Below, piece after piece: positions 5,527 through 62,868 of a stretch of 64,000 nt of DNA (its first letter is position 1; the number at the start of each line of letters is the position of its first letter). Under the pieces are notes generated by a model. It saw only the letters and a list, made by a program, of their open reading frames with translations, was not told the origin of the DNA and did not search any database. Origin of the DNA: a virus (Duplodnaviria; Heunggongvirae; Uroviricota; Caudoviricetes); IMG/VR virus record IMGVR_UViG_2681813421_000002, positions 1-64,000 of that record; one strand, 5' to 3'. The translations under genes and the position numbers were made by a program.

Positions 5527-6234
5527 TCAGAATTTGATCACTCCACTCACAGCCCCCTTTAACGCGCTTGTAGCCATGCCAGCGGCACCGTTGACCAAAG
5601 CAGAAACACCTGAGCCTGCGGATGTGTATTTCTGGAAAGTGATTGGATATGACAAGAACTCTGACACCTGGTCTCGTGAGCGGGTGATTTCCCCAAGTTG
5701 AGTGGGGAATACGCGCATTTCCTCTTCCAGTTCTTTACCGCCATCCTGAGTTACCCGGTAGAGCCGGATCTTCATTAGATATTCAGGAGGAAGGTTTATT
5801 GTTCCGTCCGGGTTTGTCACGCGGGAACGACGCTCTTTGAACCAGTTCATGATCTTGCCGTCTTCGGTATCCCTTACGGTCATCGTGACTGGTCCGGCGG
5901 TGACGTAGGTTGGCTTGCTGAACTCTACGCTACCTATCACCTTGTTTTCTGTCTCGATATTTCCGCTGCTGTAGGTGATATCCTTCACGAACATATCGAA
6001 ACCGTTCAGACCGTCCACTTCAACCGTCCACTGCCATCCCTGGGCGTAACGAATACGCATAGCGGCAGCAACAATATTTTTCCCGTAGGCAATATCGCTG
6101 CTGTAGTTCCCACTTACCCCGCCGCCGGATATTGCTTTATCCAGAATGTCGCTAATGAGGTTGCTGGTGAATGATTTTGTGTTAAATGACAGTGCGGTGG
6201 TCAACGTTCTGCCAACGCTGCTGAAAATACTCAC
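5527..6234 (-). CDS. Phage tail/virion protein, unassigned
   Basis: 235-aa ORF in co-directional structural gene block; no recognisable motif. Confidence 0.5.
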   Translation of the reverse strand: MSIFSSVGRTLTTALSFNTKSFTSNLISDILDKAISGGGVSGNYSSDIAYGKNIVAAAMRIRYAQGWQWTVEVDGLNGFDMFVKDITYSSGNIETENKVIGSVEFSKPTYVTAGPVTMTVRDTEDGKIMNWFKERRSRVTNPDGTINLPPEYLMKIRLYRVTQDGGKELEEEMRVFPTQLGEITRSRDQVSEFLSYPITFQKYTSAGSGVSALVNGAAGMATSALKGAVSGVIKF

Positions 6235-6249
6235 TCTGCGCCTCCAGCG

Positions 6250-6810
6250 TTAAAAAATGGTAGCCCCCGGAATAATCGCCCGGTTTGAGGACATTTTTTC
6301 TTCAATCTCCTGAACGCGGGCATATAACGTGGCTTCATCAGGTAGATCTGAGTAGTCAAATTTCCCGTCGATGGACGCTCGACGCTGGCGGGCGACATTT
6401 CTGACATTGATAAGCGCCTCCAGGTATTCTTCCAACATACCAATGATTGCAGGCGGCACTTGCCATTCGTCCAGTTTTCTGTCGCGGAGATTAACCAGAT
6501 ACAGCATCCGAAAAGGCCATCGTTCTGAACCTGTCAGCTCTAATTCAATAAAGCCGGATAGTTCATCCGAATAGACCAAAAGGCCATTGCTGTCGGTGAC
6601 GTGAACAAGGGATAGATAATCTTCCGGCAATGGGATTGCGGTGCCACCAGCTTTTTCGAGTTTTAGTGTCTTCACTACCCCGGCCCTGTCCTGATACGTG
6701 GTCAGCGCTTTAATCAGGAAGGCTTTCAGCGTGTCTTCTTCACGCACAAGCAGTGGGTTAAATCGCGTTTTAACGCTTTCTAATAATTCGGTTGGTGTCA
6801 TCGTAGCCAC
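6250..6810 (-). CDS. Phage tail/virion protein, unassigned
   Basis: 186-aa ORF tightly packed in structural block. Confidence 0.5.
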   Translation of the reverse strand: MATMTPTELLESVKTRFNPLLVREEDTLKAFLIKALTTYQDRAGVVKTLKLEKAGGTAIPLPEDYLSLVHVTDSNGLLVYSDELSGFIELELTGSERWPFRMLYLVNLRDRKLDEWQVPPAIIGMLEEYLEALINVRNVARQRRASIDGKFDYSDLPDEATLYARVQEIEEKMSSNRAIIPGATIF

Positions 6811-6855
6811 AACTCAAATTCAGAGGAAATCCCGTCCGGAAGGACGGGAAAGAGA

Positions 6856-7347
6856 TCACTCTACCCAGTTGTAAACAATACGCAGGGAAGGTTTCACGAC
6901 TGCCGTTACGTCTTCGGAAGAGAAGTCCACGGCGTCGGAATACACTTTGCAGTGAGAGTAGGTACGAATCAGACCTTTGTGGTTGCCGCTGTTGGATTCA
7001 GCCGCTGCCTGGAAGGTGATATCAAGATACTCTTTGCCATAAACCATTTGTTTAACGGCTGCGAGTACATCCCCTTCGATTGTCTCAGAGCAGGTGACCT
7101 GGAACTCACCAGAGTTGCGCAATGGCCCGTGTTGGTTGAACTTCATGCCGCCGGGGGCATAATCCTCCACGTCTTCGCGTGTCATTTCCGGTAACTGAGT
7201 GGTACGAACAAGTACAGACAGGTTTTCGTAACCTTTAATAGTCATCCAGAATTCTGAACCAATAAGTTTTTCGCCTGCTGCCAGGTTTTTATTAAACCGG
7301 GATTTCAGGAAGGCGATATCGGCTTTTGTATTTGCAAAACCGGACAT
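6856..7347 (-). CDS. Phage tail protein, possible tail tube
   Basis: 163-aa ORF downstream of sheath candidate; size fits tube proteins; assignment by position only. Confidence 0.4.
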   Translation of the reverse strand: MSGFANTKADIAFLKSRFNKNLAAGEKLIGSEFWMTIKGYENLSVLVRTTQLPEMTREDVEDYAPGGMKFNQHGPLRNSGEFQVTCSETIEGDVLAAVKQMVYGKEYLDITFQAAAESNSGNHKGLIRTYSHCKVYSDAVDFSSEDVTAVVKPSLRIVYNWVE

Positions 7348-12623: not shown

Positions 12624-12753
12624 GGTTAAGCCCTAAATTCGGGCGCGGCGTGAAGGTTCTTTTGACGGGCTAACAATACCTACTTTGTGATTTAGTCAAT
12701 AGGTTTAGTAAAATAAAATATATTAACACGCATGTTGTTATGTGATTTAATTT

Positions 12754-20186: not shown

Positions 20187-22477
20187 TTCATTATTGCAAT
20201 TATATCGTTAGCAACTACACGTGTTGACGCCTTGCAGGAAACCGACCGTCTGGCTGCCATATGATGTACTTTAAACCCGTTTCCTTCATATAGTTCACGG
20301 ATGTTTGGTGCACCACTATTTGTAATCACTACCTTAGCGCCGCGCTGGTGGGCTTCCACCAATAGAGATACCAGCCGTTTCTGTTCGTCGAAACGGAAGC
20401 TATTTCCTGAATAACTGGTAAACCCTTCTGTATCCGGCAGCGGTTCATACGGCGGATCGCAAAAAATCACATCTCCTTCACCAGCCGCCTCGATGACGCC
20501 AGCAAAGTCACCTGATACAAAGGACGTGTTTTTGAGTACGTCATCAGCCAAAAATGCCTCCATCTCTGCATGTGGGAAGTAGGGCGCTTTGTATTTGCCA
20601 TACCCCACGTTGAACTCGCCATTTTGGTTGTACCGCGTTACGCCATTAAAACAGTGCCGATTAAGGTACAAAAAGGCGGCAGCATGATGTAGCTGGTCAT
20701 ACTTTCCTCTGTTAAATGCCTCACGCACTTCGAGGTAAGCGTCAGCGTTGTTGTAATTTTGGAAAAAACTATATGACAGCGTGACGAGCGAATGTCCTTC
20801 TCGCTGCAATGTCTGATAGAAGTTAATCAGGTCACCGTTAATATCATTAAGCAGGTTGTGGCGAAATCCTGCATTCGTAAATACAGAACCGCCACCAACG
20901 AACGGTTCTATTAACCGCTTGCCGTGTGGTAGATGCTCAAGCACTGTAGGCAACTCTGAGAATTTACCGCCTACCCATTTGAAGATCGGACGCTCATATT
21001 CATCCGGAGTCCGGAGTTTTCTTGTGTAGGTAATGGTATTTATTGTTTTTGGCTGTTTAGCTTCCACAGTCGCAAGAATGCGACACCCAATCCATTGCAT
21101 AACAGGAACTGCCATGCTGTTGCCAATCGCTTTGTAACGCGGCCCGTCAGCAGCGAGCATCGCGGCCTCTTCTTCGCTTAAATCTGGATAGTGATTGCGA
21201 AGGTATGCCAGTTCATCTGAGGAAATTGTTTTACGCTTTTCCGTAGGGATCAACGTATGCCCATCAGGAAAACCTTGCAGCCTTTCACATTCGACAGGGG
21301 TAAGACGGCGGACAGCTACTTCTGCGTTTCTTACTTCATAGCAAACGGCTGTTGGATTTTGAGCCATTAGAGATGGTGAAGTATTCTTAGTTGCAGCATG
21401 TTGTGTACCGCTCATACGCTCAGGAAAAGCTAATGTAACAAGATGCTCATGGCTTTCTTGCTCACGCGCCCGCAATGTACCATGCCCCTCTGACCAAAAA
21501 CCTGCTCCTGTGCTGCTAAAAACGGCAAGGTCAGTGGCATCTTTAAAGTCTCTTGCCTTTACTGTCGATGCGGTTTCATCGTCAATATATTCCCCAAATG
21601 CCGCCATCCTGAAAGCGTTTACGGCTTTCGTCGATTTCATACCGGGGGGCATGTCAGCGTGTAGGCATGGATTTAGGCTTTCGCCACTGATTGCAGCGCC
21701 ATTTGCAATAATGGCGGAAGCGATTTCCTTCTTTTTTCGGCTCGGCGCAATATTCCGGCGCACGCCTTCGAACTCAAAAAGTATCGTTGCGGGATCGAGG
21801 TCTGTTCGAGCACTTGCGACAACAAACACGCGTCGGCGTCGTTGCGCCACTCCGAAGTATTGGGCATCAAGGATTCTCCAGGCCACTTTTCGCTGCGGTC
21901 CATAAATACAACCACACTGCGGCCACTTTGGAGCATGGCAACTGGTTTTGACATCCCACCGCCAGAACGCGTTACTTTTTCGCGATTCAGGTCGAGCACC
22001 TGGTTCGAATGGCGCATCTTCTCCAGCCAATCCGGCAAGGAAACATCCGAAGGCGTTATCTGCCGATGACAAGACTCCTGGGACATTTTCCCAGACGATA
22101 ACGGCTGGTTTGAGAAATGACTCAGCCCGTTTGTCGTCAATTGCATTTGCAAGCTCCACATACTTTAAAGTTAGCGCGCCACGCTCATCATCAAGCCCAC
22201 CACGTAATCCAGCGATACTGAATGCCTGACAAGGTGTTCCCCCGACGAGCACATCAGGGGATTCGATTTCCCCAGCCAGGACTTTTTTGGCAAGTTTTGT
22301 CATATCGCCAAGGTTGGCGACATGGGGCCAGCGGTGCGCAAGAACGGCAGATGGAAAAGGCTCGATTTCAGCAAACCACGCCGGACGCATACCCAACGGT
22401 TCCCAGGCAATGCTCGCTGCTTCAATTCCACTGCAAACTGAACCATATCTAAGGTTAACGTTCTGCTTCACCACCAA
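20183..22477 (-). CDS. dmt: Bifunctional DNA methyltransferase: N-terminal C5-cytosine MTase fused to C-terminal Dam-like N6-adenine MTase
   Basis: N-terminal motifs SGIE/FxGxG-like, PCQ ([11 protein letters not shown]), ENV (ENVPG), [16 protein letters not shown]; C-terminal FVGGGS and DPPY; 764 aa. Confidence 0.85.
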
Positions 22478-23360
22478 CGGCCTCCACTAGCGAAGTGAAC
22501 ATCGCGGATAATTCAGCAGTAAACAGGATAAAGTCAGCGTCAAATCGTTGCGCAACATCCTCTCGATCAATATCGTCGTTCTGGTCGTACAATTCGTCGC
22601 TGAACGACAAAGCCTTGATACTCATATCGTCATTCAGTCTGAAAAATGCACGGTCTTGCCAGTTAACCGCAACTGTGGTTGCAACCTTACCAGCTTCTAT
22701 ATGACTCATGATCTCGTCGGATAGCAGGTCCACTTTTTTGCAGCGGACCGCGCCGCCATCATCAAGCAATGCTTTTAAGGTCGCTTCCTCACCGGCACGG
22801 AAACCGTTCGGGAAGCCATTTTTAATCCAGCCAGTGATGGTCAGTTCTAATGGGTCTTTCGGAGAGAAGGGGACAACGGGCAAGCTGCCAAGCGATTTCC
22901 GTAACAAAGCCAGCTGATCCTCTGCTTTTTTAGCACTGCTGGCCTCGACAAAAACCAGATGATTGCTTCGGTCTATCAGGATTTTAGCTACTGATTTTCT
23001 CGTGAAAGCGCGAGGAAGAAGAGAGTGAAGCACTTCATCCTTCAGCGAATCTTTTTCGGTCTTCTTCAGCTTTCTGTCTTGCTCTTCTTCAAGTTTCAGG
23101 ATTTTTTTCTGTAACTCTTCTTTGAGTACTTGAGAAGGTAGGATTTTTTCCTCTCGTTTATGCTGCATCAGAAGAAAACCCTGGTATTCATGGGTGAGGT
23201 TGTCGCCAAGAACGGGGGTCCAACCAGCTTTAGCCATATCCTGAGAACCGCATGGGGTAAACACAAACTTGCTAAGGGCTGCATTTACTTCTGCAGTATC
23301 CCAGCTAACTTCGCGTGAAAGACGATAGATGAAGATATTTTTGAAAGCGACTGATCTCAT
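22455..23360 (-). CDS. rdgC: Recombination-associated protein RdgC homologue (P1 hrdC-like)
   Basis: Colinear with E. coli RdgC as recalled ([69 protein letters not shown]). Confidence 0.9.
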
Positions 23361-23371
23361 GTCTCACCATA

Positions 23372-23406
23372 TGTGTTAGAAAATACATATTAATTATCTA
23401 ACACAA
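23372..23406. promoter_or_regulatory. Palindromic operator pair TGTGTTAGA-N17-TCTAACACA upstream of rdgC-dmt
   Basis: Two inverted copies of the TCTAACA core in the 60-bp leader of rdgC. Confidence 0.5.
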
Positions 23407-40116: not shown

Positions 40117-41112
40117 ATGAGTGCAATAATCACCCCATATGTCGTAAATGAAACTGGTGTGGCTGTCTTTCCTGTAGATAAGCCCACCAGCAATTACATC
40201 GGCGCAGGACGCCGTTTTCTTATATCCCCATTGCCGCGTGAACAGGCTGAAAACACCCCTGATGGTGTCGTTGACCTGAATTATTCACTGGTTGCCAACC
40301 AGTCACTGGCACCCTTTTTTCAAAGTGAGCGCGTATTTAACGCGTTAGGTGGTGAGGATTCTCTCGTTCACTGGGTTAGCACCAACATTCACGATTGCCA
40401 GGCGCATGATAAGCGCGATTGCAGCCACCAGCTAACCACCCATTTCTATAACGGTTCTGCCGTTCGCCTGTGCTGGAAGCATGATGCGGAATACATGATG
40501 AAGGGATACGGCAAGCTGGAAGACCAACTGTCACTGAATCGCGCCAACTGGATTATGAACTGGGCTGCCAGCGAGTTAAAACTTCCGCCAGATCGCGATC
40601 TGAGCATGGTTGAACTCACCTTTTGGGCCATTCGCCGGAATCTTAAAGACGAACTGCCTGATGAAGCTGGTCGCATTGCATTTTGTCAGCCAAAAACTGA
40701 AATCCCTACCGGTACGCTGAAAGAATCAGATATCACTTGGGAGCACAGTACCCGCGAGCTGGTGGACATAACCGCAGAGCAGATCGTCAACCTGTCTGTA
40801 GATGAGGATTCCGGCCTGCTTTATATGCGCCGACCAAAAGCGGTCCTCGGTAAAAGCCCGGCTTATCTCCGGTTTGTGGTTTCTCGTCCGTGCATCGGAT
40901 GCGGTGGCAAAGTTAACCACCCGTTCATGTACCGCGCCCGCTCGTTAAACGAACACGACCGCTGGGCTGTTCCTCTTTGCGATGACTGCGCCAGAAGCGC
41001 AGAAAACGATGTCCGGGCATGGGAAAAAGCACATGGCATACGCCTTTACGTAGCCGCTAACCAGCTTTTTGACTTCGCCATCGAGCGCGGAGTAATCACG
41101 TTTAATAACTGA
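40117..41112 (+). CDS. Hypothetical protein with Cys cluster (putative Zn-binding)
   Basis: 331 aa; RPCIGCGG...C..C motif near C-terminus; operator-controlled. Confidence 0.45.
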   Translation: MSAIITPYVVNETGVAVFPVDKPTSNYIGAGRRFLISPLPREQAENTPDGVVDLNYSLVANQSLAPFFQSERVFNALGGEDSLVHWVSTNIHDCQAHDKRDCSHQLTTHFYNGSAVRLCWKHDAEYMMKGYGKLEDQLSLNRANWIMNWAASELKLPPDRDLSMVELTFWAIRRNLKDELPDEAGRIAFCQPKTEIPTGTLKESDITWEHSTRELVDITAEQIVNLSVDEDSGLLYMRRPKAVLGKSPAYLRFVVSRPCIGCGGKVNHPFMYRARSLNEHDRWAVPLCDDCARSAENDVRAWEKAHGIRLYVAANQLFDFAIERGVITFNN

Positions 41113-46706: not shown

Positions 46707-46928
46707 ATGCAATCCATTAACTTCCGTACCGCGCGTGGCAACCTTTCTGAAGTGCTCAACAATGTTGAAGCCGGGGAAGAGGTTGAAATCACCCGCAGAG
46801 GCCGTGAGCCAGCAGTAATTGTCAGCAAGGCTACTTTTGAAGCCTACAAAAAAGCGGCGCTGGATGCCGAATTTGCATCCCTGTTTGACACCCTGGACTC
46901 CACCAACAAGGAACTGGTTAACCGATAA
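46707..46928 (+). CDS. phd: Phd antitoxin
   Basis: Product from ATG 46707 matches P1 Phd as recalled ([39 protein letters not shown]...). Confidence 0.95.
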
Positions 46929-47308
46929 TGAGGCATATATCACCGGAAGAACTTATTGCGCTTCATGATGCGAATATAAGCCGCTACGGCGGCCTGCCGG
47001 GAATGTCAGATCCGGGCAGGGCAGAGGCCATTATCGGGAGAGTTCAGGCCAGAGTTGCCTACGAAGAGATCACCGACCTTTTCGAAGTCTCCGCCACCTA
47101 CCTGGTGGCTACGGCGAGAGGGCATATATTCAATGATGCCAATAAGCGTACCGCGCTAAACAGTGCGCTGCTATTTCTACGCCGTAACGGTATACAGGTA
47201 TATGATGATCCCGTGCTGGTGGAGCTTGCAGTGGGGGCTGCAACTGGTGAAATCCCCGTATCTTCAGTAGCGAAAAAACTACGTGAACTATATGGTTCCA
47301 ATATTTGA
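46928..47308 (+). CDS. doc: Doc toxin (Fic-fold kinase)
   Basis: Matches P1 Doc as recalled, including Fic motif HIFNDANKR; start overlaps phd stop (TAATG). Confidence 0.95.
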
Positions 47309-47343
47309 AAAGAAGCCCGCTCAACCAGGCGGGCTTCTTACTA

Positions 47344-48438
47344 TCACTCAATGATTTTTTCTGCTGTCAGCCAGCTAATTTCTTGCCTGTCTTTCGGCGG
47401 TTTTAGCATGTGGGCGTATTCAGCGACATTCTCCCACGGAATTGTTTTTGCCCACTCAACGATAGCATTGTGATCTGCAGTGAAGAGTGGAATGGTGTGC
47501 GATTTCAACCATTCTAATGTCGTGACGCCATGTTTTTTGGCGTGGTGCTGCGCATGATGCCGGGCTATCACTCGTAATGGTATTGTCCATTCACTACCAT
47601 CAGGCATCGAAAAGCGCATTGTCTTCGGCATATCTGATTCAAGAACAGCCTCCCTAATACCAGGGAACTCACCAAGAATCATACGACGATAGTCATCACT
47701 ATTTCGCCCGCCATACCTTTCGGCAAAATGATCAAGATATTCTTGGGTAATAAATGGTGAATCCTCCGCACTCAGCTTAATGGCTTTATATACACCACTC
47801 GGATTATCTTCAGCTAAAGCACGTCCATGATGTGAATCATAAAAAAAGCCTATTTCCTCTGGTGACGGAATTGAAGTGAGCAATATGCGTGAATCACCAC
47901 TAGTCATGCTTGCCCACACAATGCTGTATGCCCGATCGCTGATATGTGCGGAATCCACAATAATGAATAAAAGATGGTCGGCGTAGTGACCTGCAATGCT
48001 ATCTTCATAGTTAAGGCGGAAGTTACAAAAGCACATTCCCCAAAATTCATTGAACATCAGACCGCTATCACCGACCTTAAAATACTCAATGATAAAAGGT
48101 TGTTTTTTCAGCAATGCCTCCCAACATTGCCACACATATGCAACAATTCCTCTTTTGCAAACATTTGATTTTGGATAAACAATTACTGTCCGGGAATCAG
48201 GATACATAATCGTATAAAGGGTACTAATAACAGCAAGCACTTGCGGTCGTCCGATCCCATACGGAGTGGTGACAGTAGCTTTTGCATTATTGGGCTGTAT
48301 AGCTTCAACAATTTGTTGTTGCTGGTGGCTTAAATCAATATCAAACAATTCTTTTGCTGCCAGTACCCAATTGTCTTTATATTTCTCCACCAGCGACAGC
48401 CAGCGCGGATCTTTATAAATATTGCTCTTAGTCGCCAT
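47344..48438 (-). CDS. Terminase large-subunit (PacB) ATPase-domain paralogue with degenerate Walker motifs, no nuclease domain
   Basis: About 40 percent identical by eye to PacB N-terminal 270 aa (SHQQQQI, FYDSHH, DNP, SPF, EYGGR); Walker A GHGTGKS replaced by PYGIGRP; Walker B LILDEAS replaced by IIVDSAH; C-terminal 110 aa unrelated; ATG 48438 with AAGGAAG RBS. Confidence 0.6.
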   Translation of the reverse strand: MATKSNIYKDPRWLSLVEKYKDNWVLAAKELFDIDLSHQQQQIVEAIQPNNAKATVTTPYGIGRPQVLAVISTLYTIMYPDSRTVIVYPKSNVCKRGIVAYVWQCWEALLKKQPFIIEYFKVGDSGLMFNEFWGMCFCNFRLNYEDSIAGHYADHLLFIIVDSAHISDRAYSIVWASMTSGDSRILLTSIPSPEEIGFFYDSHHGRALAEDNPSGVYKAIKLSAEDSPFITQEYLDHFAERYGGRNSDDYRRMILGEFPGIREAVLESDMPKTMRFSMPDGSEWTIPLRVIARHHAQHHAKKHGVTTLEWLKSHTIPLFTADHNAIVEWAKTIPWENVAEYAHMLKPPKDRQEISWLTAEKIIE

Positions 48439-49195
48439 CTGCCACTTCCTTAACTTCTTCTTTGGCCTGTTCTGCAATCGCCGCACGGCATTTCGCCCTG
48501 GCTGTAGCGATTGCTTCAGCTCGCACATCGTCTGGAATCGTTGACGTGATATACATATCCAGTTCTTCGGCACGGAATACTGTTTGGTCCAGATATTCGC
48601 GTAGCATCCAGGTAAATTCGAAATCACACGCGATAATCTCTGCGCCACCTTCTGCACCATTTGGGAAATGAATAAATGCCTGTTTAGCCAAACCGATAAC
48701 ACGACATGCGGTTGCCAAAACAGCGACAACCAGGTTTACATTTTCACACGCTACGGGCTGGTTAACGCCGGAGATTACTCCATTTAACTGTCGGTTATAT
48801 GGAAGGTAGTTTGAGATGCGTTCTACGCGCCATGTGCCAGTCAGGCTGCCATTTTTAAATATAATTGGTGTAACGGATAGCCCAAGCTCGCGTATAAGTC
48901 GTTGCGCTATAGCAGGATCATTAAACAGGTCTAATGCTACACATTCGAAAGACTGCGCAAGGGCAAACAGTTCTTCCAGAGAGTAGTCTTTGCCCCTGGC
49001 GGTGATGTAACGACGAACGCCGCTGTCTGCATCACTCCATATAGCTACGCCATGCTCTTCATTCAGCTCTTCATTAAAGCCGAGATACGTCATGATAGTG
49101 CGTTCAATCGTGTCAAACGGCAGTGACATGTCGGCGTTAACAGCCACCAGCAGGCCATTACGCAAGCGGTATTGAATTGTTTTAGTGCTTTCCAT
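48428..49195 (-). CDS. Hypothetical protein
   Basis: 255-aa ORF in operator-controlled operon. Confidence 0.45.
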   Translation of the reverse strand: MESTKTIQYRLRNGLLVAVNADMSLPFDTIERTIMTYLGFNEELNEEHGVAIWSDADSGVRRYITARGKDYSLEELFALAQSFECVALDLFNDPAIAQRLIRELGLSVTPIIFKNGSLTGTWRVERISNYLPYNRQLNGVISGVNQPVACENVNLVVAVLATACRVIGLAKQAFIHFPNGAEGGAEIIACDFEFTWMLREYLDQTVFRAEELDMYITSTIPDDVRAEAIATARAKCRAAIAEQAKEEVKEVADGD

Positions 49196-49201
49196 GTCAA
49201 A

Positions 49202-49642
49202 TCACTCCACAACAAACCAGTCACAGGCCAGCAGGTCGCCAACTGAAGGCACCCACGGAACAACTACACCTTGTGCATTTTTTAAGGCGAAATAAGCACC
49301 ATACGGAACGAGGTCGCCGGGGAAATATCCCTTAATGGCTTCCATTCGTGCCGGGTACTGTCCTTCAGGAACCAGCCAGCAGAATTGGTTTTCGCCGTTC
49401 CACCCGCGTCGAGCAACTTTCTTGCCTTCCTTCAGCCACATCAGCGCGTCTGAAAAGTCGGCTGCTTCAAGGTCGATTTCTTCTTGCTGGGTGGTGATGC
49501 CACCAGCAGAAATAGTTACGCTCCCGGTAAGATTAATCATCACGCCGTTGTCATCCGTAATGATGACCGTGGTTCCATTTTTTTTGTGAGCTTTGTATTT
49601 GGGACGGAACTTAAAAAGCTCTTTCGTTGCCATGTTATTCAT
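49202..49642 (-). CDS. DUF2829-like protein (Tad2-like anti-Thoeris sponge family candidate) with N-terminal extension
   Basis: C-terminal 90 aa FSDALMWLKEGKKVARRGWNG...GDLLACDWFVV matches recalled DUF2829 signature. Confidence 0.45.
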   Translation of the reverse strand: MNNMATKELFKFRPKYKAHKKNGTTVIITDDNGVMINLTGSVTISAGGITTQQEEIDLEAADFSDALMWLKEGKKVARRGWNGENQFCWLVPEGQYPARMEAIKGYFPGDLVPYGAYFALKNAQGVVVPWVPSVGDLLACDWFVVE

Positions 49643-49656
49643 AGTCTTTTCTCTGC

Positions 49657-50151
49657 TTATAACTTTTCGTACTGAAGCGGTGAACGCTTAATTTCAAAGT
49701 GGCCTTCCGATGTGCTACCAAAGCCACCAGCACCACGCTCCGTTTCGTTGAGTTCCTCAACCTCGACTAGTGAGACTTGTTCAACACGCTCAAAAATTCC
49801 TTGCATGACAGCCATTCCAGGCTTGAGACAAACGCCTTCCCCGCCGGGATCAGTAATCAGTTTTGCCATGATTTCGCCGCGATAATCGGAGTCGATAATT
49901 CCTACGCAGTTAGCCAGGCGAGTATGTTTTTTGCAGCCCAATCCTGATCGCGGATAGAGTTTCAGACACCAGCCGGGCGGGATCTCCATAGCCAGTCCGG
50001 TATACACCCACCAGCTTGAGGAAATTGCACCATTGCTATCGACGCATGGTTTTATTTCAACAGCCTCAAAATCCATCGCCGCCGATCCGGAGGTGGCATA
50101 AGCTGGAAGTTTTGCTGCCGGATGTAGGCGTTTCACTTTTACGTAAATCAT
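49657..50151 (-). CDS. dut: dUTP diphosphatase
   Basis: Trimeric dUTPase motifs (GLGCKKH..., GIIDSDYRGE, GERGAGGFGSTS). Confidence 0.8.
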   Translation of the reverse strand: MIYVKVKRLHPAAKLPAYATSGSAAMDFEAVEIKPCVDSNGAISSSWWVYTGLAMEIPPGWCLKLYPRSGLGCKKHTRLANCVGIIDSDYRGEIMAKLITDPGGEGVCLKPGMAVMQGIFERVEQVSLVEVEELNETERGAGGFGSTSEGHFEIKRSPLQYEKL

Positions 50152-50624
50152 TGTTTTTTAGCTCTCTGCGTGAAGGTGTAAACCCGACGTTTGATATGTG
50201 GAACGGTAGGAACAGGAAGACAGGAACTTTCAATAACTCCTTGCTCATCCAGCGATCGCACCGCCCGCAAGAACTGCGACGTGTCGCCGCCAAACTGGCG
50301 GGCATAGGTGCTGCCGTTATGAAGTATTTGAGCTATTACCCGAGTTTTTGTCTGGCTGTCACGATATGCGAATAGCCGCACGGCCTCTTCTGGCGCAATC
50401 GCTAACTGATAGCCTTTCCCGGCACGGTGTCGAATGAATCCATGCGCCAGTAGGTTTTTGAGTTCGTTACGAGTGCGAACAGATCCGTAACCCAGGAAGT
50501 GTGGATTGATAACGACTGGCTTAAACCATTCCGTAGGTGCTTTAGCTAATAGAGCTAACAGCTTCCCGGATAATTCTGGATAGGAAGACGGGTAACAATT
50601 CAGAGATGGGTAATAAGTTTTCAC
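50148..50624 (-). CDS. Hypothetical protein
   Basis: 158-aa ORF, overlaps dut start by 4 nt. Confidence 0.45.
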   Translation of the reverse strand: MKTYYPSLNCYPSSYPELSGKLLALLAKAPTEWFKPVVINPHFLGYGSVRTRNELKNLLAHGFIRHRAGKGYQLAIAPEEAVRLFAYRDSQTKTRVIAQILHNGSTYARQFGGDTSQFLRAVRSLDEQGVIESSCLPVPTVPHIKRRVYTFTQRAKKQ

Positions 50625-50965
50625 CGACGCCCCCTTGCAGGATATCGACCTGCATTAGTATCCGGTGCAATAAAGCCGGTAGTGGGGCGAGTGAAAGCGA
50701 GATTAATCTTCTCGACCATAGTGCGATAATTTTCCTGATAGTGGGCCAGGAGTTTTTCGGCGGCAATGATGGTTACTTTCCGGACGTAGCTTTCTGCTTC
50801 CTCCAGATTTCGCCAGTTTTTTTCGAGGGTAAACACAGGGACGGCCTCAAGCCCGGTCATGATGCCGAACACAACGACAGCATGACTGTTCTTAACACCA
50901 GCGGCGAAGGTTACGGTGTAACCATCCACCTTGAAGCGTCTTGATTCCGTGATTTGACTCTGCAA
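50621..50965 (-). CDS. Hypothetical protein, first gene of operon
   Basis: 114-aa ORF directly downstream of operator motif at 51023. Confidence 0.45.
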   Translation of the reverse strand: MQSQITESRRFKVDGYTVTFAAGVKNSHAVVVFGIMTGLEAVPVFTLEKNWRNLEEAESYVRKVTIIAAEKLLAHYQENYRTMVEKINLAFTRPTTGFIAPDTNAGRYPARGRR

Positions 50966-51022
50966 AGCACCCTCCTAAATAGGCGAGGGTACTTTACAGC
51001 AAAGATGTTAATCTAAAAAGAT

Positions 51023-51038
51023 GTGTTAGAAATTTAAT
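51023..51038 (-). promoter_or_regulatory. Operator-like motif (AAATTTCTAACACA on minus strand)
   Basis: TCTAACA core between cre 3' end and operon 50965-47344. Confidence 0.5.
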
Positions 51039-52067
51039 TTATAAATCCATCAGGCGGCTATTAGCCCCCACAGACACGCCGCCACGGCGCAGATACCGCA
51101 TAAGTGTTTCCGGTTTCTTCCAGGTTCCTTCCTGCATAATCTCCACCATAGAGACCTGCTTTTCAGCCATATCGATAGCGGCCCCGACGCGTGCACTATG
51201 CCCGGTCCACGTCCGGTATCTTCCTTTGTTTGGCGTAGCATCTCCTTTATTCAGCAACACCCAGGCGTCGCTGAATATTTTCTCCATTGCAGGTGCAGTA
51301 AGGGGCGTTATCGTGATCCTGGCCTTATTGCTACGGTGTATCGGCGGGAACAGCACTGCGTCAGGATGTTCGCGAAGCCCGGAAACATCCAGCCAGTCAT
51401 TCAGCACAGCGGTAGTGCGACGGGAAAGCACCTTATCAAGCCCGGCGGCGGTCGTTATTGTCTTCGTGTGTGAAATATGTAGCGTGACAGTGTCACCTGT
51501 TTGGTCCAGATCTCCTACACGAATACGCGAGATTTCCGACATACGCATCAGCGTATTGTATGCAACAAAGAGAAAAGCCCGGTTGCGCAGGTCCACCAGC
51601 CGTTCAGACCTGGACAACAGGACGTCGAGCAGTTTCAGATCGTCCCACCGCAGCGGTATAGCCTGGCCTGTTCGTTCGCCTTTTTCAGTTGCCGCTTCGC
51701 GCCGGATGCGCCGCATAGCCAGAGAAACACTTTTATCATCCGAAAGTGGTGGAAGGCCACAATGCGAAAGCAGCATGTTCAGCATGGCGTAGTGCTTATC
51801 AATGGTGGTCGAAGCCAGATCGGCATCATGCAGCTGAAGAAAATACTCGCGGGCCATTTCTGGTGAGATCGGAAACCAGGCAAGCTGGCGAGCGTGACAC
51901 CAGCGCGCCCAGGAATGAAACACCAAACGGAGGTCGCGCAGAGTATTCGGCGCATAAGCTCCCTGGTCATTCATGAACCGCATAAAGTTTTCTGCGGCTT
52001 CCTGGTACTCTTTGCCAATGTTGCGCAGAAAACCACCGGAACTGCCAGAGATAATTAATTCACCCAT
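51039..52067 (-). CDS. cre: Cre-like tyrosine site-specific recombinase
   Basis: 342 aa colinear with P1 Cre as recalled (VSLAMRRIRRE, IRNRAFLFVAYNTLMRMSEISRIRVGD, GHSARVGAAIDMA, catalytic Tyr region LMRYLRR). Confidence 0.9.
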   Translation of the reverse strand: MGELIISGSSGGFLRNIGKEYQEAAENFMRFMNDQGAYAPNTLRDLRLVFHSWARWCHARQLAWFPISPEMAREYFLQLHDADLASTTIDKHYAMLNMLLSHCGLPPLSDDKSVSLAMRRIRREAATEKGERTGQAIPLRWDDLKLLDVLLSRSERLVDLRNRAFLFVAYNTLMRMSEISRIRVGDLDQTGDTVTLHISHTKTITTAAGLDKVLSRRTTAVLNDWLDVSGLREHPDAVLFPPIHRSNKARITITPLTAPAMEKIFSDAWVLLNKGDATPNKGRYRTWTGHSARVGAAIDMAEKQVSMVEIMQEGTWKKPETLMRYLRRGGVSVGANSRLMDL

Positions 52068-52218
52068 GAAACTATTTGACCTCTATATACAGATGACGCT
52101 ACGCGAAAAATATAAAAATGACAGGGTAGCTATAAGTTAATTTTCAAAATACAAGCCTTTGATTCGAGGCACGTATTTTCAGTGATGTCAACACTGTTCA
52201 TCTACACATGATTATAGC

Positions 52219-52252
52219 CTAACTTTAAATAATGCCAATTATTTAAAGTTAT
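52219..52252. other. lox-like recombination site CTAACTTTAAATA-ATGCCAAT-TATTTAAAGTTAT (13-8-13)
   Basis: 12/13 inverted-repeat arms flanking 8-bp asymmetric spacer, about 150 bp upstream of cre start; outer arms share AACTT with loxP. Confidence 0.7.
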
Positions 52253-52433
52253 AAAATGCCGATTTTTTTTAATCCATCATAGATTGATGATGACCAGTAA
52301 CACGTTGCCTTCATGGTCTTTAATTTGCGAAGTGTGGTTTCTACGGTTGGTTTTCTAAAATTGATGACAAAAAATCACAGTTCGATCCTTTACTCACCCT
52401 GTTATTCGACATAAATTTGTCATAGTAATTTTA

Positions 52434-52450
52434 TGTTAGAAAACTAAATC
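52434..52450 (-). promoter_or_regulatory. Operator-like motif (TTTAGTTTTCTAACATAA on minus strand)
   Basis: TCTAACA core immediately upstream of 52462 gene. Confidence 0.5.
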
Positions 52451-52461
52451 GAGTAGGAATA

Positions 52462-53499
52462 ATGAGTAAGAAGTCGATCGAGAAAGAGTACAAACGGTTC
52501 CTGCAAACCGCTGAACGGTGGAAAGAGCTGGTGGTCGCAAACTCTGTTTTCCATGATACCAGTTATGCTGGCGAGGAATTCCGCCATGTTGCATTAACGC
52601 ATGACCAAAACATATTAGAAGAAGCTGAAAAATGTCTTGCTGAATGGAAAGCCTTCGTTGACATGTGCCGCGATGCCGACGGCAAAGCGTCGAACATTGT
52701 TGAGTCTGTATATTCTCCGATCCCATTCATCATTGAGGACACCAATCAAAGCACGCATGTCGTTGTGCAAAGCGCTACAACAACACGTACATTTACACGT
52801 GAACAATTGCTAAAAAAATACGACAAAATCATAAAGAAAAGCCTGAAAAATAGGGTTTTTTCTCAAATCGTAGGTGCTCTTGAAGAAGAACAGCGCTTCT
52901 TTGAAGCTGAGCCTGAAGGCGAGATCTACCGGGCGCGTAAAGAGGCATATACAGATGTTGTGCTGACAACAAACATCGAAGGCAGCAATGCCCTTTCTCG
53001 CTTTAGAGTTGGCGCACATGGCGCATTGGTTTTCGCAAGACTACCGAAGACAACGATCCCCGTTGTCAATAATGTTGGTGAACGCCGGAGCATTACAATT
53101 TATTCTGGCGTCGAATCGGTACCATGCAGCCTTCTCGGCGATTTTAACTTATATCGTGTTCGTGACCTGGAAAAACACCAGCCAAGCTACGTTGCGAAGT
53201 CGTACATCTTAAGGAACATCGATATTCGCAATGAAAGCCTTAAGCAGAAATCCGCTAAGATGCTGGAGGATGCCGATCCGGCTATTCGCCATATCATTGA
53301 ACGTAAGATACGTACATCACGTGAAGCAATGGCAAGGTTGGATAAAATGGATCTGGAATTGTTAGACGTAATGATGGCCTCTGGAGACGACCTGACCGGC
53401 ATTAAACTGAATGAAGCTCGTAAAAAATACGGCAAAGCAATCGAAGAACGTTACGGATACACATTCCCCCAAACGCAGTACGCCGCGAAGCTCTGGTAA
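52462..53499 (+). CDS. Hypothetical protein at the P1 c1 position (candidate immunity/regulatory protein)
   Basis: 345-aa ORF between lox-cre and pacB, convergent with pacB, operator motif in leader; no recognised similarity to P1 C1. Confidence 0.45.
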   Translation: MSKKSIEKEYKRFLQTAERWKELVVANSVFHDTSYAGEEFRHVALTHDQNILEEAEKCLAEWKAFVDMCRDADGKASNIVESVYSPIPFIIEDTNQSTHVVVQSATTTRTFTREQLLKKYDKIIKKSLKNRVFSQIVGALEEEQRFFEAEPEGEIYRARKEAYTDVVLTTNIEGSNALSRFRVGAHGALVFARLPKTTIPVVNNVGERRSITIYSGVESVPCSLLGDFNLYRVRDLEKHQPSYVAKSYILRNIDIRNESLKQKSAKMLEDADPAIRHIIERKIRTSREAMARLDKMDLELLDVMMASGDDLTGIKLNEARKKYGKAIEERYGYTFPQTQYAAKLW

Positions 53500-53527: not shown

Positions 53528-55036
53528 TTATATATCCAGATCCGGCATTTCGATATCCGCCAGAACCTGATCTCGGAAAGTTGCCATTTCGGCACCAATA
53601 TCTTCATTAGCAGGCACATAGTCCACCAGCATAGTGAAGCAGTAGGTATCCCATCGGTCAGGCGATTTGATGTTTAGCTTTTGCCGCATGTGCTCTTTGC
53701 GCATCATCGCCATTTTCCCTTCCTCATTCAGTAAAAAGGGGATTTTTGACGCTTGCTCTGCCGTTTTAGGGTCACTGTCTATCCGCATACGCCCTGACTT
53801 TATGGCATCACGCGCCATAATATTTGCGTAGGCACGCTGATTAACAAATCGCTCCCTGTCTTTGTTCGCAAACATGGGTTTTCCCCACCGAATACGTACC
53901 GGGTTCGCACCACGACGTACCAACTGCGCACACGTATCAGAACCAAAACCATCGGCATCAACCGCGATTGTTATATTCGGGTATTTTTCCGGCGTACATT
54001 CGTTATATATAAAGTCAGCAAAGGCCAATGGGTCCATAGTGCCAGGCATCTCCATTACCTTAAAGTTAACAACGCGCCGCTTATCCCTGTGACCAGATAC
54101 CTTGCAGATGTTGAGGACCGACTTATCTCGCCCATTACCAACGTCAGCCGTTGCCACCCATCCCCAGTTTTTCTCCAACAACACCTTGCGGCGAGCAGCG
54201 CGATCGCATTCATCACGACCAAGCAAATAGCCGTTAATTTCTCGTGGGAACTGACCAAGCACCTTGACCATATACTCAATAGAATCGCGCCCACCATATT
54301 CCAGAAGCTTCTGCCTGATGAATTGTGGTGTGACGAACGGTGATTCTTCCGAGTTAAGAACAATTGCTGTCCAGATCCCTTTCGGGTTGTCTGGGGTTTT
54401 TGCTTGAGAATGGTGCGAATCGTAGAAATAACCACTTGGCCTTGTTGGCTGGGATAGCATCAACATCCGGTTATCTTCTTCAGTAAGAGCACCGGTCATT
54501 ACGCCGATCGCCTTATCAGATATACCAGATGCTTCATCCAGAATTAGAAGCAAATGTGCCGCATGTTCCCCCGCCAGCGCTTCTTCGTTGCCGAGTCGAT
54601 AACCTTTGCAGAGAACTTCCCAAATCCCCTTACGGGAGCGCTCATAAAACATGGTGTCAGAGAGGACAAAATAGGTCTGCAACCACCCATGACGCTTAAC
54701 TGCATTCGCCCAATACTGTTTAACGTATTTGAATACGCCTGTTTTTACCTGGCCTATCTTGTTAGCAACAATGATGACACGGGCATCGGGGAACAGGATC
54801 ATAAAAATCAACAGCAACATCGCGGTAAGGGACGACTTCCCAGTTCCGTGTCCGGACGTGACGGTCGTCCTACTCCCCGTTTCCTGCACGGACTGAATGA
54901 TCTGCTGCTGCTGGTGGGAGGGGAACATCCCAAAAATATCGACAACAGCCTGGGTAAAGTTGTAGCGGTATTTGATTACCATATCGCGCCAGCGTGGATC
55001 GCTGGTGACGCATTTAATCTTGCGCCCTCCAGCCAT
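53528..55036 (-). CDS. pacB: Terminase large subunit PacB
   Basis: Walker A SGHGTGKSS, Walker B LLLILDEASGI, C-terminal nuclease-domain length; directly downstream of pacA. Confidence 0.85.
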   Translation of the reverse strand: MAGGRKIKCVTSDPRWRDMVIKYRYNFTQAVVDIFGMFPSHQQQQIIQSVQETGSRTTVTSGHGTGKSSLTAMLLLIFMILFPDARVIIVANKIGQVKTGVFKYVKQYWANAVKRHGWLQTYFVLSDTMFYERSRKGIWEVLCKGYRLGNEEALAGEHAAHLLLILDEASGISDKAIGVMTGALTEEDNRMLMLSQPTRPSGYFYDSHHSQAKTPDNPKGIWTAIVLNSEESPFVTPQFIRQKLLEYGGRDSIEYMVKVLGQFPREINGYLLGRDECDRAARRKVLLEKNWGWVATADVGNGRDKSVLNICKVSGHRDKRRVVNFKVMEMPGTMDPLAFADFIYNECTPEKYPNITIAVDADGFGSDTCAQLVRRGANPVRIRWGKPMFANKDRERFVNQRAYANIMARDAIKSGRMRIDSDPKTAEQASKIPFLLNEEGKMAMMRKEHMRQKLNIKSPDRWDTYCFTMLVDYVPANEDIGAEMATFRDQVLADIEMPDLDI

Positions 55037-56400
55037 TAATCATCCTCCGGCGGTTCTATCGCGATATCTTCATCTCCGGCGTCATACCCTGCATCAGATG
55101 CATCATAATCACCGTAAATTTCAGCCGTTGCCGAAGGGTCAATATCCAGCTCTTCGTCGTTGGCCTCGAATTCTCCAGCTTTACGCTCGCCATTGCGGTC
55201 GTAATCTCCGCACCCCAATTCTTCAACAATGGTTGCCACATCCGCCCGGCGCTCTGCCAGCCATTGCGGATGGTTAGCCTGAAGCGTCGCAAACTCCCTT
55301 GCCTCTTTGTCCAGCTGTTCATCATCAACATCATTGACGTCAGAAACAGGTGGTTCGAGAAGAGTGATAGCTTTCGCCGCGCGCGCCGCGAGGATAGCCG
55401 GGACGCTGACCCCCTGGCGCTCGATGTATTCAGCAACACCGATATCATCCAGTTCCTCGCGCTCACGCATACGTATAGCGGCGGCGATAACTCTGGCTGC
55501 GCGTGCGTCAGCGCCAATGCGATATTCAATCTCTTTGCCACGCTGTTCGGCCTGTAGGCGTGCTAATTCGAGTTTTTCTCTGGCCTCAGCCTCTTTGAAT
55601 GCTTGCTGGCGAGCGCTCTGACGAAGCTTTTCATCCCCCTGTCGCAGCTTTTGTTCGGACTGATATATAGCTGCCAACCTACTGATAAAATCATTCATGT
55701 AGTAGGCAGCGTCACTGATTAGACCGAGAAGGCGCTGCCCAGGGTGCATTCCTTCTGGCTCTTTATCGCCCAAGGCGTCTATTTCCGCCTGTAGACGTTC
55801 GGCCTCCTGATCAACAATGCTTTGATACTGAAGTGCGCGCTCTTGCGCCATTTGAATTGCTAACCGCAGGTGTTCTTCTGCGCCGTTCTTCATCATATCG
55901 CGAGCCACATTCGTAGTGGGCAATGTGGCACGCTGCACAGCACCGCCAGGGATCATTGCTGAAGATCCCTCAATTTTTGGGGCGCTTTTATCTTCTTCGG
56001 GGATCATTTTCGCCATTTTTTCGCGCAATGATCTCCTGACAGATTCTTTTATCTCATTGTTATTATTTGCATTATTTTCATGATCCGAAGTTTTCTTTCT
56101 CGGCATACTTCGGAAAGAACCTGCGCCCTGCGAATTGTCAATTTCTGTAAATTTTGTTTTTTCTGCACCCTCTTCCAGCTTTTTTGTTGCTCTTCCCGCC
56201 CGTTTTTTTTCAGGTGATTTGGTGCTTTTTTTTGTTGTCTTTACCTGCGACCGCACCTCATTTTTTTTCATATTGAGATGCTTTCTGGCTGTATTGAAGC
56301 TAAGGCCATGCTCCTCACAGTATTCCTTTACAGTGATCCCTTTTTCTTCACGCAACGCTATAAAGCGGGCGCGGTGCTCCTCCCAATTAACCAGACTCAT
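55036..56400 (-). CDS. pacA: Terminase small/pac-recognition subunit PacA
   Basis: N-terminal HTH (ITVKEYCEEHGLSFNTARKHL), acidic C-terminus; contains GATC cluster. Confidence 0.75.
   Translation of the reverse strand: MSLVNWEEHRARFIALREEKGITVKEYCEEHGLSFNTARKHLNMKKNEVRSQVKTTKKSTKSPEKKRAGRATKKLEEGAEKTKFTEIDNSQGAGSFRSMPRKKTSDHENNANNNNEIKESVRRSLREKMAKMIPEEDKSAPKIEGSSAMIPGGAVQRATLPTTNVARDMMKNGAEEHLRLAIQMAQERALQYQSIVDQEAERLQAEIDALGDKEPEGMHPGQRLLGLISDAAYYMNDFISRLAAIYQSEQKLRQGDEKLRQSARQQAFKEAEAREKLELARLQAEQRGKEIEYRIGADARAARVIAAAIRMREREELDDIGVAEYIERQGVSVPAILAARAAKAITLLEPPVSDVNDVDDEQLDKEAREFATLQANHPQWLAERRADVATIVEELGCGDYDRNGERKAGEFEANDEELDIDPSATAEIYGDYDASDAGYDAGDEDIAIEPPEDD
55945..56090 (-). other. 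Candidate pac site: 5 GATC within 135 bp inside pacA
   Basis: GATC at 55951, 55964, 56002, 56030, 56082; P1 pac is a Dam-site cluster within pacA. Confidence 0.4.
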
Positions 56401-61659: not shown

Positions 61660-62868
61660 TTATTTCCCGTAAAGATCTTCTACACCCCCATTCTTCTTAT
61701 CCCATTCGTTCGCCCATACCCGGCAAGCGTCAATGATTTCCTGACGACGATCTCCTTGCATGAACGGAATGCTTTCATGGAAACAGCTTGGAATGCAGGC
61801 CACACTGAATACAGTATCAAACTCCGTCTGCTTGATTGCCTCCAGCGTCTCCGGACGCATTTTTAATTCATCGATTGGCGCATCCTTAGAGTCCATAATC
61901 CGGCGATATAAGCGCGGAAAATCCGTCTCCAGGTACGCCATAATTTTATCTGCGAGACATTCGTCTATGTCGGTATTCCAGTCCTTTTCGAAGCCCGGCA
62001 GGCGATAGTAAAGCGGCGTTCCCCATACCGATGGGATCACATCCATCGTTAACAGGCGATTAGTTCTGATTTGTTGATGGTAATTAGCCGTCAGCAGTGC
62101 TTCGCCACGCTGCCCAGTTTCCGCAACCAGGCCGTGCGGATACTCATGGATGTAGGCAATGGCATCCCTTCCATCATACATAAGTGGAAATGTCTCTGGT
62201 CTTTGTCCCATGCCACAAGCACGGTTCAGATCGTGACCAAGCTGTGAGCACTCTCGCTTTAATGTTTCGATAATGCTCTGCGCTGTAGCCAACTTTTTAC
62301 GCAGTGTGACGCCTTCGCCTTGATAATCAATGCATTGCTGATTGAGCTTGGTTAAACGCTCTTTTAGTTCCCGGCGCTCTCTTTTCAGCGTGCGGTTATC
62401 CTTCTCCGCAACATCCAGCCGCTTTGTCAGGCTTGGCGGATAGTCTTTTTTGTAACGGTTCAAATCGGCTTCGGCAGATTTACGCAGTGTATTTGCCTGT
62501 TCAAGACGCGCTTCCAGATTGCCGATCTCATTACGCATATTCGCGGCAAATTGATTAACTGCATCACCCAGGCTTTCAACTGTCGCTGATACGCCTGTGA
62601 CTTGTGAAAAACGGATCAAGCCATCATTAACGGCTTGTTGGTATTCCTCAAACTGATCCACCAGCTTATTGTAATCAACTGCCCCATCATCAAGCAGCTT
62701 GTTGATTTCCGCCACCAGGTTATCTGTAGTGGCAATGACACTCTCGTGCAGTCGCTTTGACAGGTCATCACCCGGATTCCGTTTCTGTATAAGAGCGATT
62801 TGTGTGCGCAGCGTTTCAATTGCTGTCGAGATAATTTCCAGATTAGAAGTATCAGTGTGTTGACTCAT
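61660..62868 (-). CDS. Hypothetical coiled-coil protein, operator-flanked (early function candidate)
   Basis: 402 aa; N-terminal 200 aa heptad-rich, C-terminal globular part with Cys/His residues; operator motifs at both ends. Confidence 0.5.
   Translation of the reverse strand: MSQHTDTSNLEIISTAIETLRTQIALIQKRNPGDDLSKRLHESVIATTDNLVAEINKLLDDGAVDYNKLVDQFEEYQQAVNDGLIRFSQVTGVSATVESLGDAVNQFAANMRNEIGNLEARLEQANTLRKSAEADLNRYKKDYPPSLTKRLDVAEKDNRTLKRERRELKERLTKLNQQCIDYQGEGVTLRKKLATAQSIIETLKRECSQLGHDLNRACGMGQRPETFPLMYDGRDAIAYIHEYPHGLVAETGQRGEALLTANYHQQIRTNRLLTMDVIPSVWGTPLYYRLPGFEKDWNTDIDECLADKIMAYLETDFPRLYRRIMDSKDAPIDELKMRPETLEAIKQTEFDTVFSVACIPSCFHESIPFMQGDRRQEIIDACRVWANEWDKKNGGVEDLYGK

Follow-up and report, generated by a model that had tools for sequence, protein, structure and literature searches.

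Why does a relative of the phage-plasmid P1 carry, besides its intact large terminase PacB, a second PacB-like ATPase domain in which the catalytic motifs are degenerate? This question is raised by the last gene of a six-gene string on the minus strand of IMG/VR record IMGVR_UViG_2681813421_000002, of which positions 1 to 64,000 were analysed (this whole stretch of 64,000 nucleotides (nt) is referred to as the window). The window represents a D6-type relative of P1, and the gene in question (47344-48438, minus strand) encodes a protein of 364 amino acids (aa), here called the PacB paralogue. Large terminases are among the most conserved phage proteins, and several bacterial immune sensors therefore target them. 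An original prediction, made from the DNA letters, had described the paralogue as a catalytically inactive terminase mimic under early control for which no P1 function was known. The last point was fair, as the gene is missing from the reference P1 and no description of it came up in the literature searched on terminase paralogues and decoys. Our analyses show, at the level of sequence, that the paralogue has lost the residues that bind and hydrolyse ATP while retaining the ATPase-domain fold, that it arose by duplication of a P1/D6-type pacB gene with replacement of the nuclease domain by a small foreign domain, and that it has since been kept as an intact, constrained and dispensable gene.

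Homology to PacB and degeneration of the catalytic motifs

In a BLASTP comparison, the first ~260 residues of the paralogue were 37% identical to PacB of the window over 258 aa (E 3e-56). This similarity is clearly significant and the proposed kinship with the ATPase domain of PacB therefore stands. The protein also matched phrog_5902 (8.6e-165) and the 'terminase large subunit' family phrog_2 (9.4e-9), but it had no match in Pfam, NCBIfam or PADLOC. A full-length AlphaFold2 model built from 6 sequences was poor (a predicted local distance difference test score of 61.6) and served for a coarse fold search only; the best fold matches of this low-confidence model were the large-terminase ATPase structures of D6E, P74-26 and T4 gp17. 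The nearest relative of the terminase-ATPase-like domain (residues 1-262; 47653-48438, minus strand; hereafter the N-domain) is the product of the intact pacB gene (53528-55036, minus strand), which adjoins pacA (55036-56400). The PacB-family profile reaches both the solved ATPase domain of P74-26 and the solved nuclease domain of Sf6, and PacB itself is therefore an ordinary large terminase. The paralogue gene lies ~5 kb away from pacA-pacB, and in P1-type plasmids it is found in another operon.

The Walker A motif of PacB, SGHGTGKS, is aligned with TPYGIGRP in the paralogue. The Lys is thus replaced by Arg and the Ser by Pro, which agrees with the predicted change from GKS to GRP. The Walker B motif is disrupted as well (IIVDS in the paralogue), but its residues had been mapped wrongly as a change from DE to DS. 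LLLILDEASGISD of PacB stands opposite LLFIIVDSAHISD of the paralogue, and because the alignment is ungapped from the flanking HLL to the flanking ISD, it is the Asp that has been replaced by Val and the catalytic Glu that has been replaced by Asp. To judge from the five paralogue alleles that we compared, which are 50-66% identical to one another, motif loss is a trait of the whole paralogue family and not only of the window copy. The position of the Walker A Lys is occupied by R, Q, Q, H and E in these alleles, and by K in 27 of 27 PacB-like proteins and 4 of 4 distant terminases. The position of the Walker B Asp is occupied by V, T, A, M and I, and that of the Walker B Glu by D, E, E, D and N, so that two alleles keep the catalytic Glu. 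Among the 52 N-domain positions that are at least 90% conserved in the 27 PacB-like proteins, 21, chiefly Gly, Pro and aromatic residues, are retained by every one of the five alleles, and 15 are lost in all five, including S58, G59, K64, H152, S164, G165 and T192. The lost positions cluster in Walker A, after Walker B and in the SQPT stretch.

No similarity to the nuclease (C-terminal) half of PacB was detected by BLASTP for residues ~263-364. These residues form an orphan alpha/beta domain in place of the nuclease domain (263-364; 47347-47652, minus strand; hereafter the C-domain) and belong to a separate domain family, which bears out the claim that the nuclease domain was exchanged for an unrelated C-terminus. 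Elsewhere, and mostly on metagenome contigs, this domain of ~100 aa makes up a small protein by itself. The family comprises 225 clusters, has a confident predicted fold and shows the consensus MPDGS.W.VP..IA..RA..YA ... EDTLPLF..D..EI.DWA.NNM.W.DV. It corresponds to no Pfam family, and neither single-sequence and profile searches of the PDB nor a fold search returned a solved fold relative. Fusions to DUF1351 or to a Lar-like restriction-alleviation domain occur in some members of the family. The stand-alone genes sit in arrays of small open reading frames (ORFs) without known function, and these contexts were uninformative.

Origin, distribution and allele exchange

That the gene might be a fragment had been named as an alternative, but it was found to be intact. 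The ratio of nonsynonymous to synonymous substitution rates (dN/dS, Nei-Gojobori method) between alleles was 0.14-0.33, with synonymous sites at or near saturation and all ORFs uninterrupted. The ATG at 48438 overlaps the stop codon of the upstream isaA homologue by 11 nt, is preceded by the Shine-Dalgarno sequence AAGGAAG, and agrees with the RefSeq annotation of a 99.8% identical plasmid. In P1-type plasmids the start of the paralogue gene overlaps the isaA stop codon by 8 nt, again with a Shine-Dalgarno sequence in place. The maximal ORF (47344-48729) runs 97 codons beyond the ATG to a TTG, in full overlap with isaA, and one database entry of 438 aa ('Terminase large subunit') begins upstream of the ATG as well. 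Given its Shine-Dalgarno sequence, the ATG at 48438 is more likely to be the true start.

In a neighbour-joining tree of N-domains, the paralogues were monophyletic in all 200 bootstraps. Their clade nests inside the enterobacterial PacB clade, usually beside the D6-type PacB, and is borne on a long stem. This pattern points to one duplication of pacB that was followed by fast change. The paralogue thus shares a homologous N-terminal ATPase domain with PacB, but differs from it in that the Walker A Lys, the Walker B Asp and the nuclease domain are missing, and in that its gene is not adjacent to pacA and is dispensable.

A search for the operon in other P1-like plasmids had been proposed. Among the PLSDB plasmids, 760 encode a PacB homologue, 461 an IsaA homologue and 164-166 the paralogue. 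The allele of the window was found in ~34 of these plasmids, other alleles in D6-type backbones in ~10, and a P1-type allele, which is 49% identical to the window allele, in ~120. The carriers are phage-plasmids of E. coli, Salmonella, Klebsiella and Shigella, in which the gene is unannotated, and it is always located directly after isaA, in D6-type and P1-type plasmids alike. Phage D6 lacks the gene and has a pdcA-like ORF at that spot, and in D6-like plasmids of Klebsiella and Enterobacter the operon stops at isaA. In P1-type plasmids the order is ssb, isaA, paralogue and then the convergent hxr gene. The reference P1 is 98% identical to the P1-type carriers on both sides of the slot (the carrier compared was MH422554, positions 6004-7120 of the extracted locus), but between the stop codons of isaA and hxr it contains IS1 and isaB (NC_005856, 22532-24243) as a clean replacement of the paralogue. 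A gene that is common among natural relatives is therefore missing from the laboratory reference. isaA-IS1-isaB has been described as 'variable region 2' of P1-like phage-plasmids, without mention of a terminase paralogue (PMC9603915). This is the same locus as that of the P1-type paralogue, which fills the space between the isaA and hxr stop codons. PdcB and IsaB were considered as P1 counterparts and rejected: a second P1 match to the paralogue is lacking at E≤1e-5; P1 IsaB is unrelated to it; and the homologue of pdcB is encoded elsewhere in the window (40117-41112).

Three other D6-type plasmids served for comparison with the window. Lpa, PacA, PacB, C1, Cre, the products of the first two genes of the string (g1 and g2), Dut, IsaA (residues 1-225), Doc, Phd and HumD were 97-100% identical to their window counterparts, the range being 98-100% when g1, g2, Dut, Phd and HumD are set aside and 99-100% for PacA, PacB, Lpa and C1. 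PacA and PacB were 99.3-99.8% identical across the compared plasmids. In the same three plasmids, the paralogue N-domain was only 51-53% identical to that of the window and the C-domain was 98% identical. Between the window and one of these plasmids, dS amounted to 1.40 in the N-domain and to 0.10 in the C-domain. Exchange affects a segment that runs from the 3' end of isaA to the junction between the two domains of the paralogue. Since such divergent N-domains occur beside near-identical PacA and PacB proteins, the N-domain allele does not follow the terminase of its plasmid. Apart from the paralogue, only the Tad2 homologue diverged strongly, with 68-85% identity overall. Its N-terminal extensions differ in length, giving proteins of 146 to 233 aa, and its Tad2 domain was 99% identical in one plasmid and 73% identical in another. 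The C-terminal tail of IsaA co-varies with the N-domain, but was rejected as a sign of interaction, since this acidic stretch is variable and overlaps the boundary of the recombined segment.

The gene string and its putative regulation

The whole region 47344-51038 is 99.8% identical to E. coli plasmids of ~90-96 kb, and its part 48455-51038 is 98% identical to phage D6. As proposed, it holds six closely packed, co-oriented genes on the minus strand between doc and cre, according to both the ORF list and the RefSeq annotation of one 99.8% identical plasmid. Their order is g1, g2, dut, the Tad2-family gene, the isaA homologue and, as the last gene, the PacB paralogue, with overlaps of 4, 4 and 11 nt and gaps of 14 and 6 nt at the junctions. 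In plasmid NZ_OY754373.1, which is otherwise 99.8% identical, the IS21-family element ISEc62 (istA/istB) is inserted within the string. The doc gene (46928-47308, plus strand) is convergent with the paralogue gene, and between the two lies a terminator-like hairpin (47307-47336, minus strand) with an 8-bp GC-rich stem (AAGCCCGC / GCGGGCTT) followed by CTTTTC.

The presence of a Tad2-like protein and a dUTPase in the string was substantiated by family searches. The Tad2-family (DUF2829) protein of 146 aa (49202-49642, minus strand) matches Pfam PF11195 at 5.9e-23, and its last 89 residues match the solved Tad2 chains 9EIB (8e-21) and 8V3E (1.1e-20). Judged by these matches it is a genuine member of the Tad2 family, a known counter-defence family. 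The dUTPase (dut, 49657-50151, minus strand) matches Pfam PF00692 at 1.7e-14 and the NCBIfam equivalog NF001862 with 121.5 bits against a cut-off of 103. One of the three genes that had been listed as unknowns turned out to encode a homologue of P1 IsaA. This protein of 255 aa is encoded directly upstream of the paralogue (48428-49195, minus strand), and its residues 2-225 are 48% identical to P1 IsaA (E 9e-66), the gene for which is non-essential in P1. For the other two the description holds: g2 (158 aa; 50148-50624, minus strand; phrog_6669 at 1.1e-96) and g1 (114 aa; 50621-50965, minus strand; phrog_1968 at 4.1e-48), which starts with a TTG after AGGAGG, have, like IsaA, no detectable relatives of known function. 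IsaA, g1 and g2 had no match in Pfam, NCBIfam or PADLOC, and single-sequence and profile searches of the PDB returned no match for IsaA and g2. None of the six proteins of the string matched a PADLOC model.

The string had been described as headed by an operator motif. The P1 C1 operator consensus ATTGCTCTAATAAATTT is not found in the window even when 3 mismatches are allowed, which fits the finding that C1 of the window is only 21% identical to P1 C1. However, the 18-mer AAATTAAATTTCTAACAC at 51023-51040 (minus strand), which overlaps the stop codon of cre, belongs to a recurrent asymmetric motif of 17-18 bp, AAATTAGTTTTCTAACAY, with 5 copies within 3 mismatches where 0.07 were expected. We regard it as a putative D6-type C1 operator, an assignment based only on its recurrence and location. 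A position weight matrix search recovered 11 sites in all, a count that is not independent of the first search because the matrix was built from the same sites. Further putative copies are located at 12750, 34836, 35487, 40058, 52433, 56867, 61641 and 62890. Putative operators precede the homologues of lpa, c1 (52462-53499, plus strand) and pdcB, and the lpa and c1 sites match the positions of Olpa and Oc1 in P1. Two copies flank an ORF of 402 aa (61660-62868). At 23373-23404, upstream of a minus-strand ORF of 301 aa (22455-23360), two operator-like sites are inverted and overlapping, like the bivalent operators of P1. The site at 51023-51040 is conserved in D6 and in three other plasmids.

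The only strong σ70-like match in 46900-52600 is a near-consensus promoter upstream of cre (52211-52238, minus strand; TTGGCA, 16 nt, TATAAT); shuffled sequence gave ~8 such matches. The site at 51023 may therefore act on a weak local promoter or block read-through from cre. The cre gene (51039-52067), directly upstream of the string and in the same orientation, may be part of its transcription unit. For the isaA operon of P1, the annotation gives the C1-controlled operator Ossb, and early expression of the paralogue is thus plausible in D6-type and P1-type contexts; the early control of the original prediction is as firm as the putative operator from which it was drawn. A hairpin that takes in the Shine-Dalgarno sequence of g1 (50969-50990, minus strand; ACCCTC / GAGGGT) was read from the sequence. 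In an Enterobacter relative the loop differs but the pairing is preserved (ACCCTCC / GGAGGGT), and the TGTAAAGT/TGTAAATT element that precedes the hairpin is also conserved. This region may serve in translational control or as part of a promoter.

Possible roles of the paralogue

What a terminase-like protein of this kind might do was judged from all of these observations. We tentatively favour the reading that the paralogue is a non-enzymatic mimic of PacB that would work by binding in a conflict with host sensors or rival elements. As a mimic of the PacB ATPase domain, it would act by binding rather than by catalysis and occupy a partner that normally meets PacB. The variable N-domain would set which partner is recognised, and the constant C-domain would supply a fixed activity or an anchor. 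The most likely partners would be host sensors of large terminases, such as those of Avs1-3 or Upx type, and the terminases of competing P1-like elements. The partner is placed outside the plasmid's own packaging machinery because the early-looking string contains a counter-defence gene and because the evolutionary pattern is of the conflict type. Likewise, a conflict role is ranked first because of how the alleles are distributed, because Tad2 diverges in parallel, because the gene is present in some plasmids and absent from others, and because it is likely to be expressed early. Rather more doubtful is a specific version of the mimic, according to which it is made before the real terminase and blunts a terminase-recognising system, either by holding sensors in non-productive complexes via the C-domain or by acting on the packaging enzyme of rivals, with the N-domain alleles as specificity classes. 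Loss of the motifs may instead allow early production of a terminase-like protein that escapes the sensors.

Nearest to the paralogue among described proteins is vs.8 of phage T4, an uncharacterised terminase-ATPase paralogue that is recognised by EcAvs2 and is toxic when co-expressed with it (PMC13601566). By its description, vs.8 likewise duplicates the terminase ATPase domain, lacks a nuclease domain and has an unknown function. However, vs.8 keeps Walker A and B, whereas the paralogue has lost both and gained a C-domain, and the two belong to different phage lineages. Ppi of the Staphylococcus aureus pathogenicity islands (SaPI) and Rpp of the E. coli phage-inducible chromosomal islands (PICI) are satellite proteins that act on the terminase small subunit of the helper phage and are not themselves terminase homologues. 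What they may have in common with the paralogue is the idea of a non-catalytic protein that alters packaging by binding to a terminase subunit, which is putative for the paralogue. The literature on catalogued anti-defence proteins yielded no terminase mimic.

Several observations weigh against a mimic that acts on sensors or rivals. Known terminase sensors are switched on by binding, and Avs2 and Avs3 read terminase-bound ATP and active-site residues (PMC13601566). As these are features that the paralogue lacks, a simple decoy would be invisible to the sensors or harmful to the phage. Furthermore, the N-domain alleles represent a few deep, discrete types rather than a continuum, and such alleles could also stem from recombination without selection for diversity. 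No good σ70 promoter was found between the putative operator and g1, and the operator itself is putative, so that early timing of expression is putative as well. Lastly, the fusion of C-domains to DUF1351 and the location of the P1-type copy in an ssb operon hint at a role in DNA metabolism.

An unlikely alternative is that the paralogue regulates packaging of its own plasmid. It would bind PacA or the pac site without cutting, and thereby delay or tune pac cleavage, or it would poison PacB rings until concatemers are ready. Conservation shared with PacB is highest ahead of the Q motif and downstream of SQPT (FYDSHH, NP.G, E.SP, YGG, G.FP), in parts which by analogy with other terminases could be subunit-contact surfaces, and complexes containing a protein without a nuclease domain could not cut DNA. 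Yet co-variation with PacA and PacB, which stay 99.3-99.8% identical beside N-domains of 51-53% identity, is absent. In addition, D6, P1 and many relatives package normally without the gene, which moreover belongs to a putatively operator-controlled string apart from the pacA-pacB operon. Overall, the evidence from these comparisons leans away from a regulator that is tuned to the plasmid's own terminase.

About equally unlikely is a function that is carried by the constant C-domain in early DNA metabolism, such as replication, recombination or host takeover, with the dead ATPase fold as a scaffold or DNA-binding platform. Such a role would fit the 98% conservation of the C-domain while the N-domain is swapped, its widespread stand-alone occurrence, its fusions to DUF1351 or a Lar-like domain and the P1-type copy within the ssb-isaA operon. 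However, the C-domain has no detectable fold or sequence link to characterised proteins, and this explanation does not account for the recruitment and constraint of the terminase domain or for its exchange as discrete alleles.

A role in host defence or exclusion, in which the terminase-like domain serves as bait or sensor for the small terminase, portal or terminase inhibitor of an invader, appears improbable. The presence/absence polymorphism, the discrete alleles, the location in a recognised variable region (PMC9603915) and the adjoining toxin-antitoxin pair are typical features of defence loci. Against this, none of the six proteins matches PADLOC, no recognisable effector-like domain is present, and the putative C1 operator and the counter-defence neighbour suggest expression in the lytic cycle rather than in the lysogen.

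It is very improbable that the paralogue is a still-active nucleoside triphosphatase with non-canonical motifs: although three alleles read GIGQKT or GIGHKS, with the Lys shifted by one position, and two keep the catalytic Glu, the window allele (GIGRPQ) has neither Lys nor Ser/Thr, the Walker B Asp is replaced by a hydrophobic or small uncharged residue in all five alleles, and the residues after Walker B and the Thr of SQPT are lost in all five. Finally, the loss of the catalytic motifs and nuclease domain and the dispensability in relatives might recall a decaying, functionless remnant of a duplicated pacB, but this is scarcely credible for full-length ORFs that show such dN/dS values at saturated dS, that have a conserved overlap with the isaA stop codon suggestive of translational coupling, that are carried by ~165 plasmids in four genera, and that have gained a complete foreign domain which is predicted to be well folded.

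We return to the PacB mimic as the tentatively preferred reading. A dead terminase domain that is joined to a foreign domain and exchanged as discrete alleles beside a Tad2 gene looks like a tool in the conflict between phage and host. The gene may have escaped study because the laboratory P1 reference lacks it. If the mimic reading is true, the paralogue would be the first terminase-mimic factor in counter-defence or competition. The gene also opens a first genetic route to an orphan domain family that comprises more than 200 sequence clusters.

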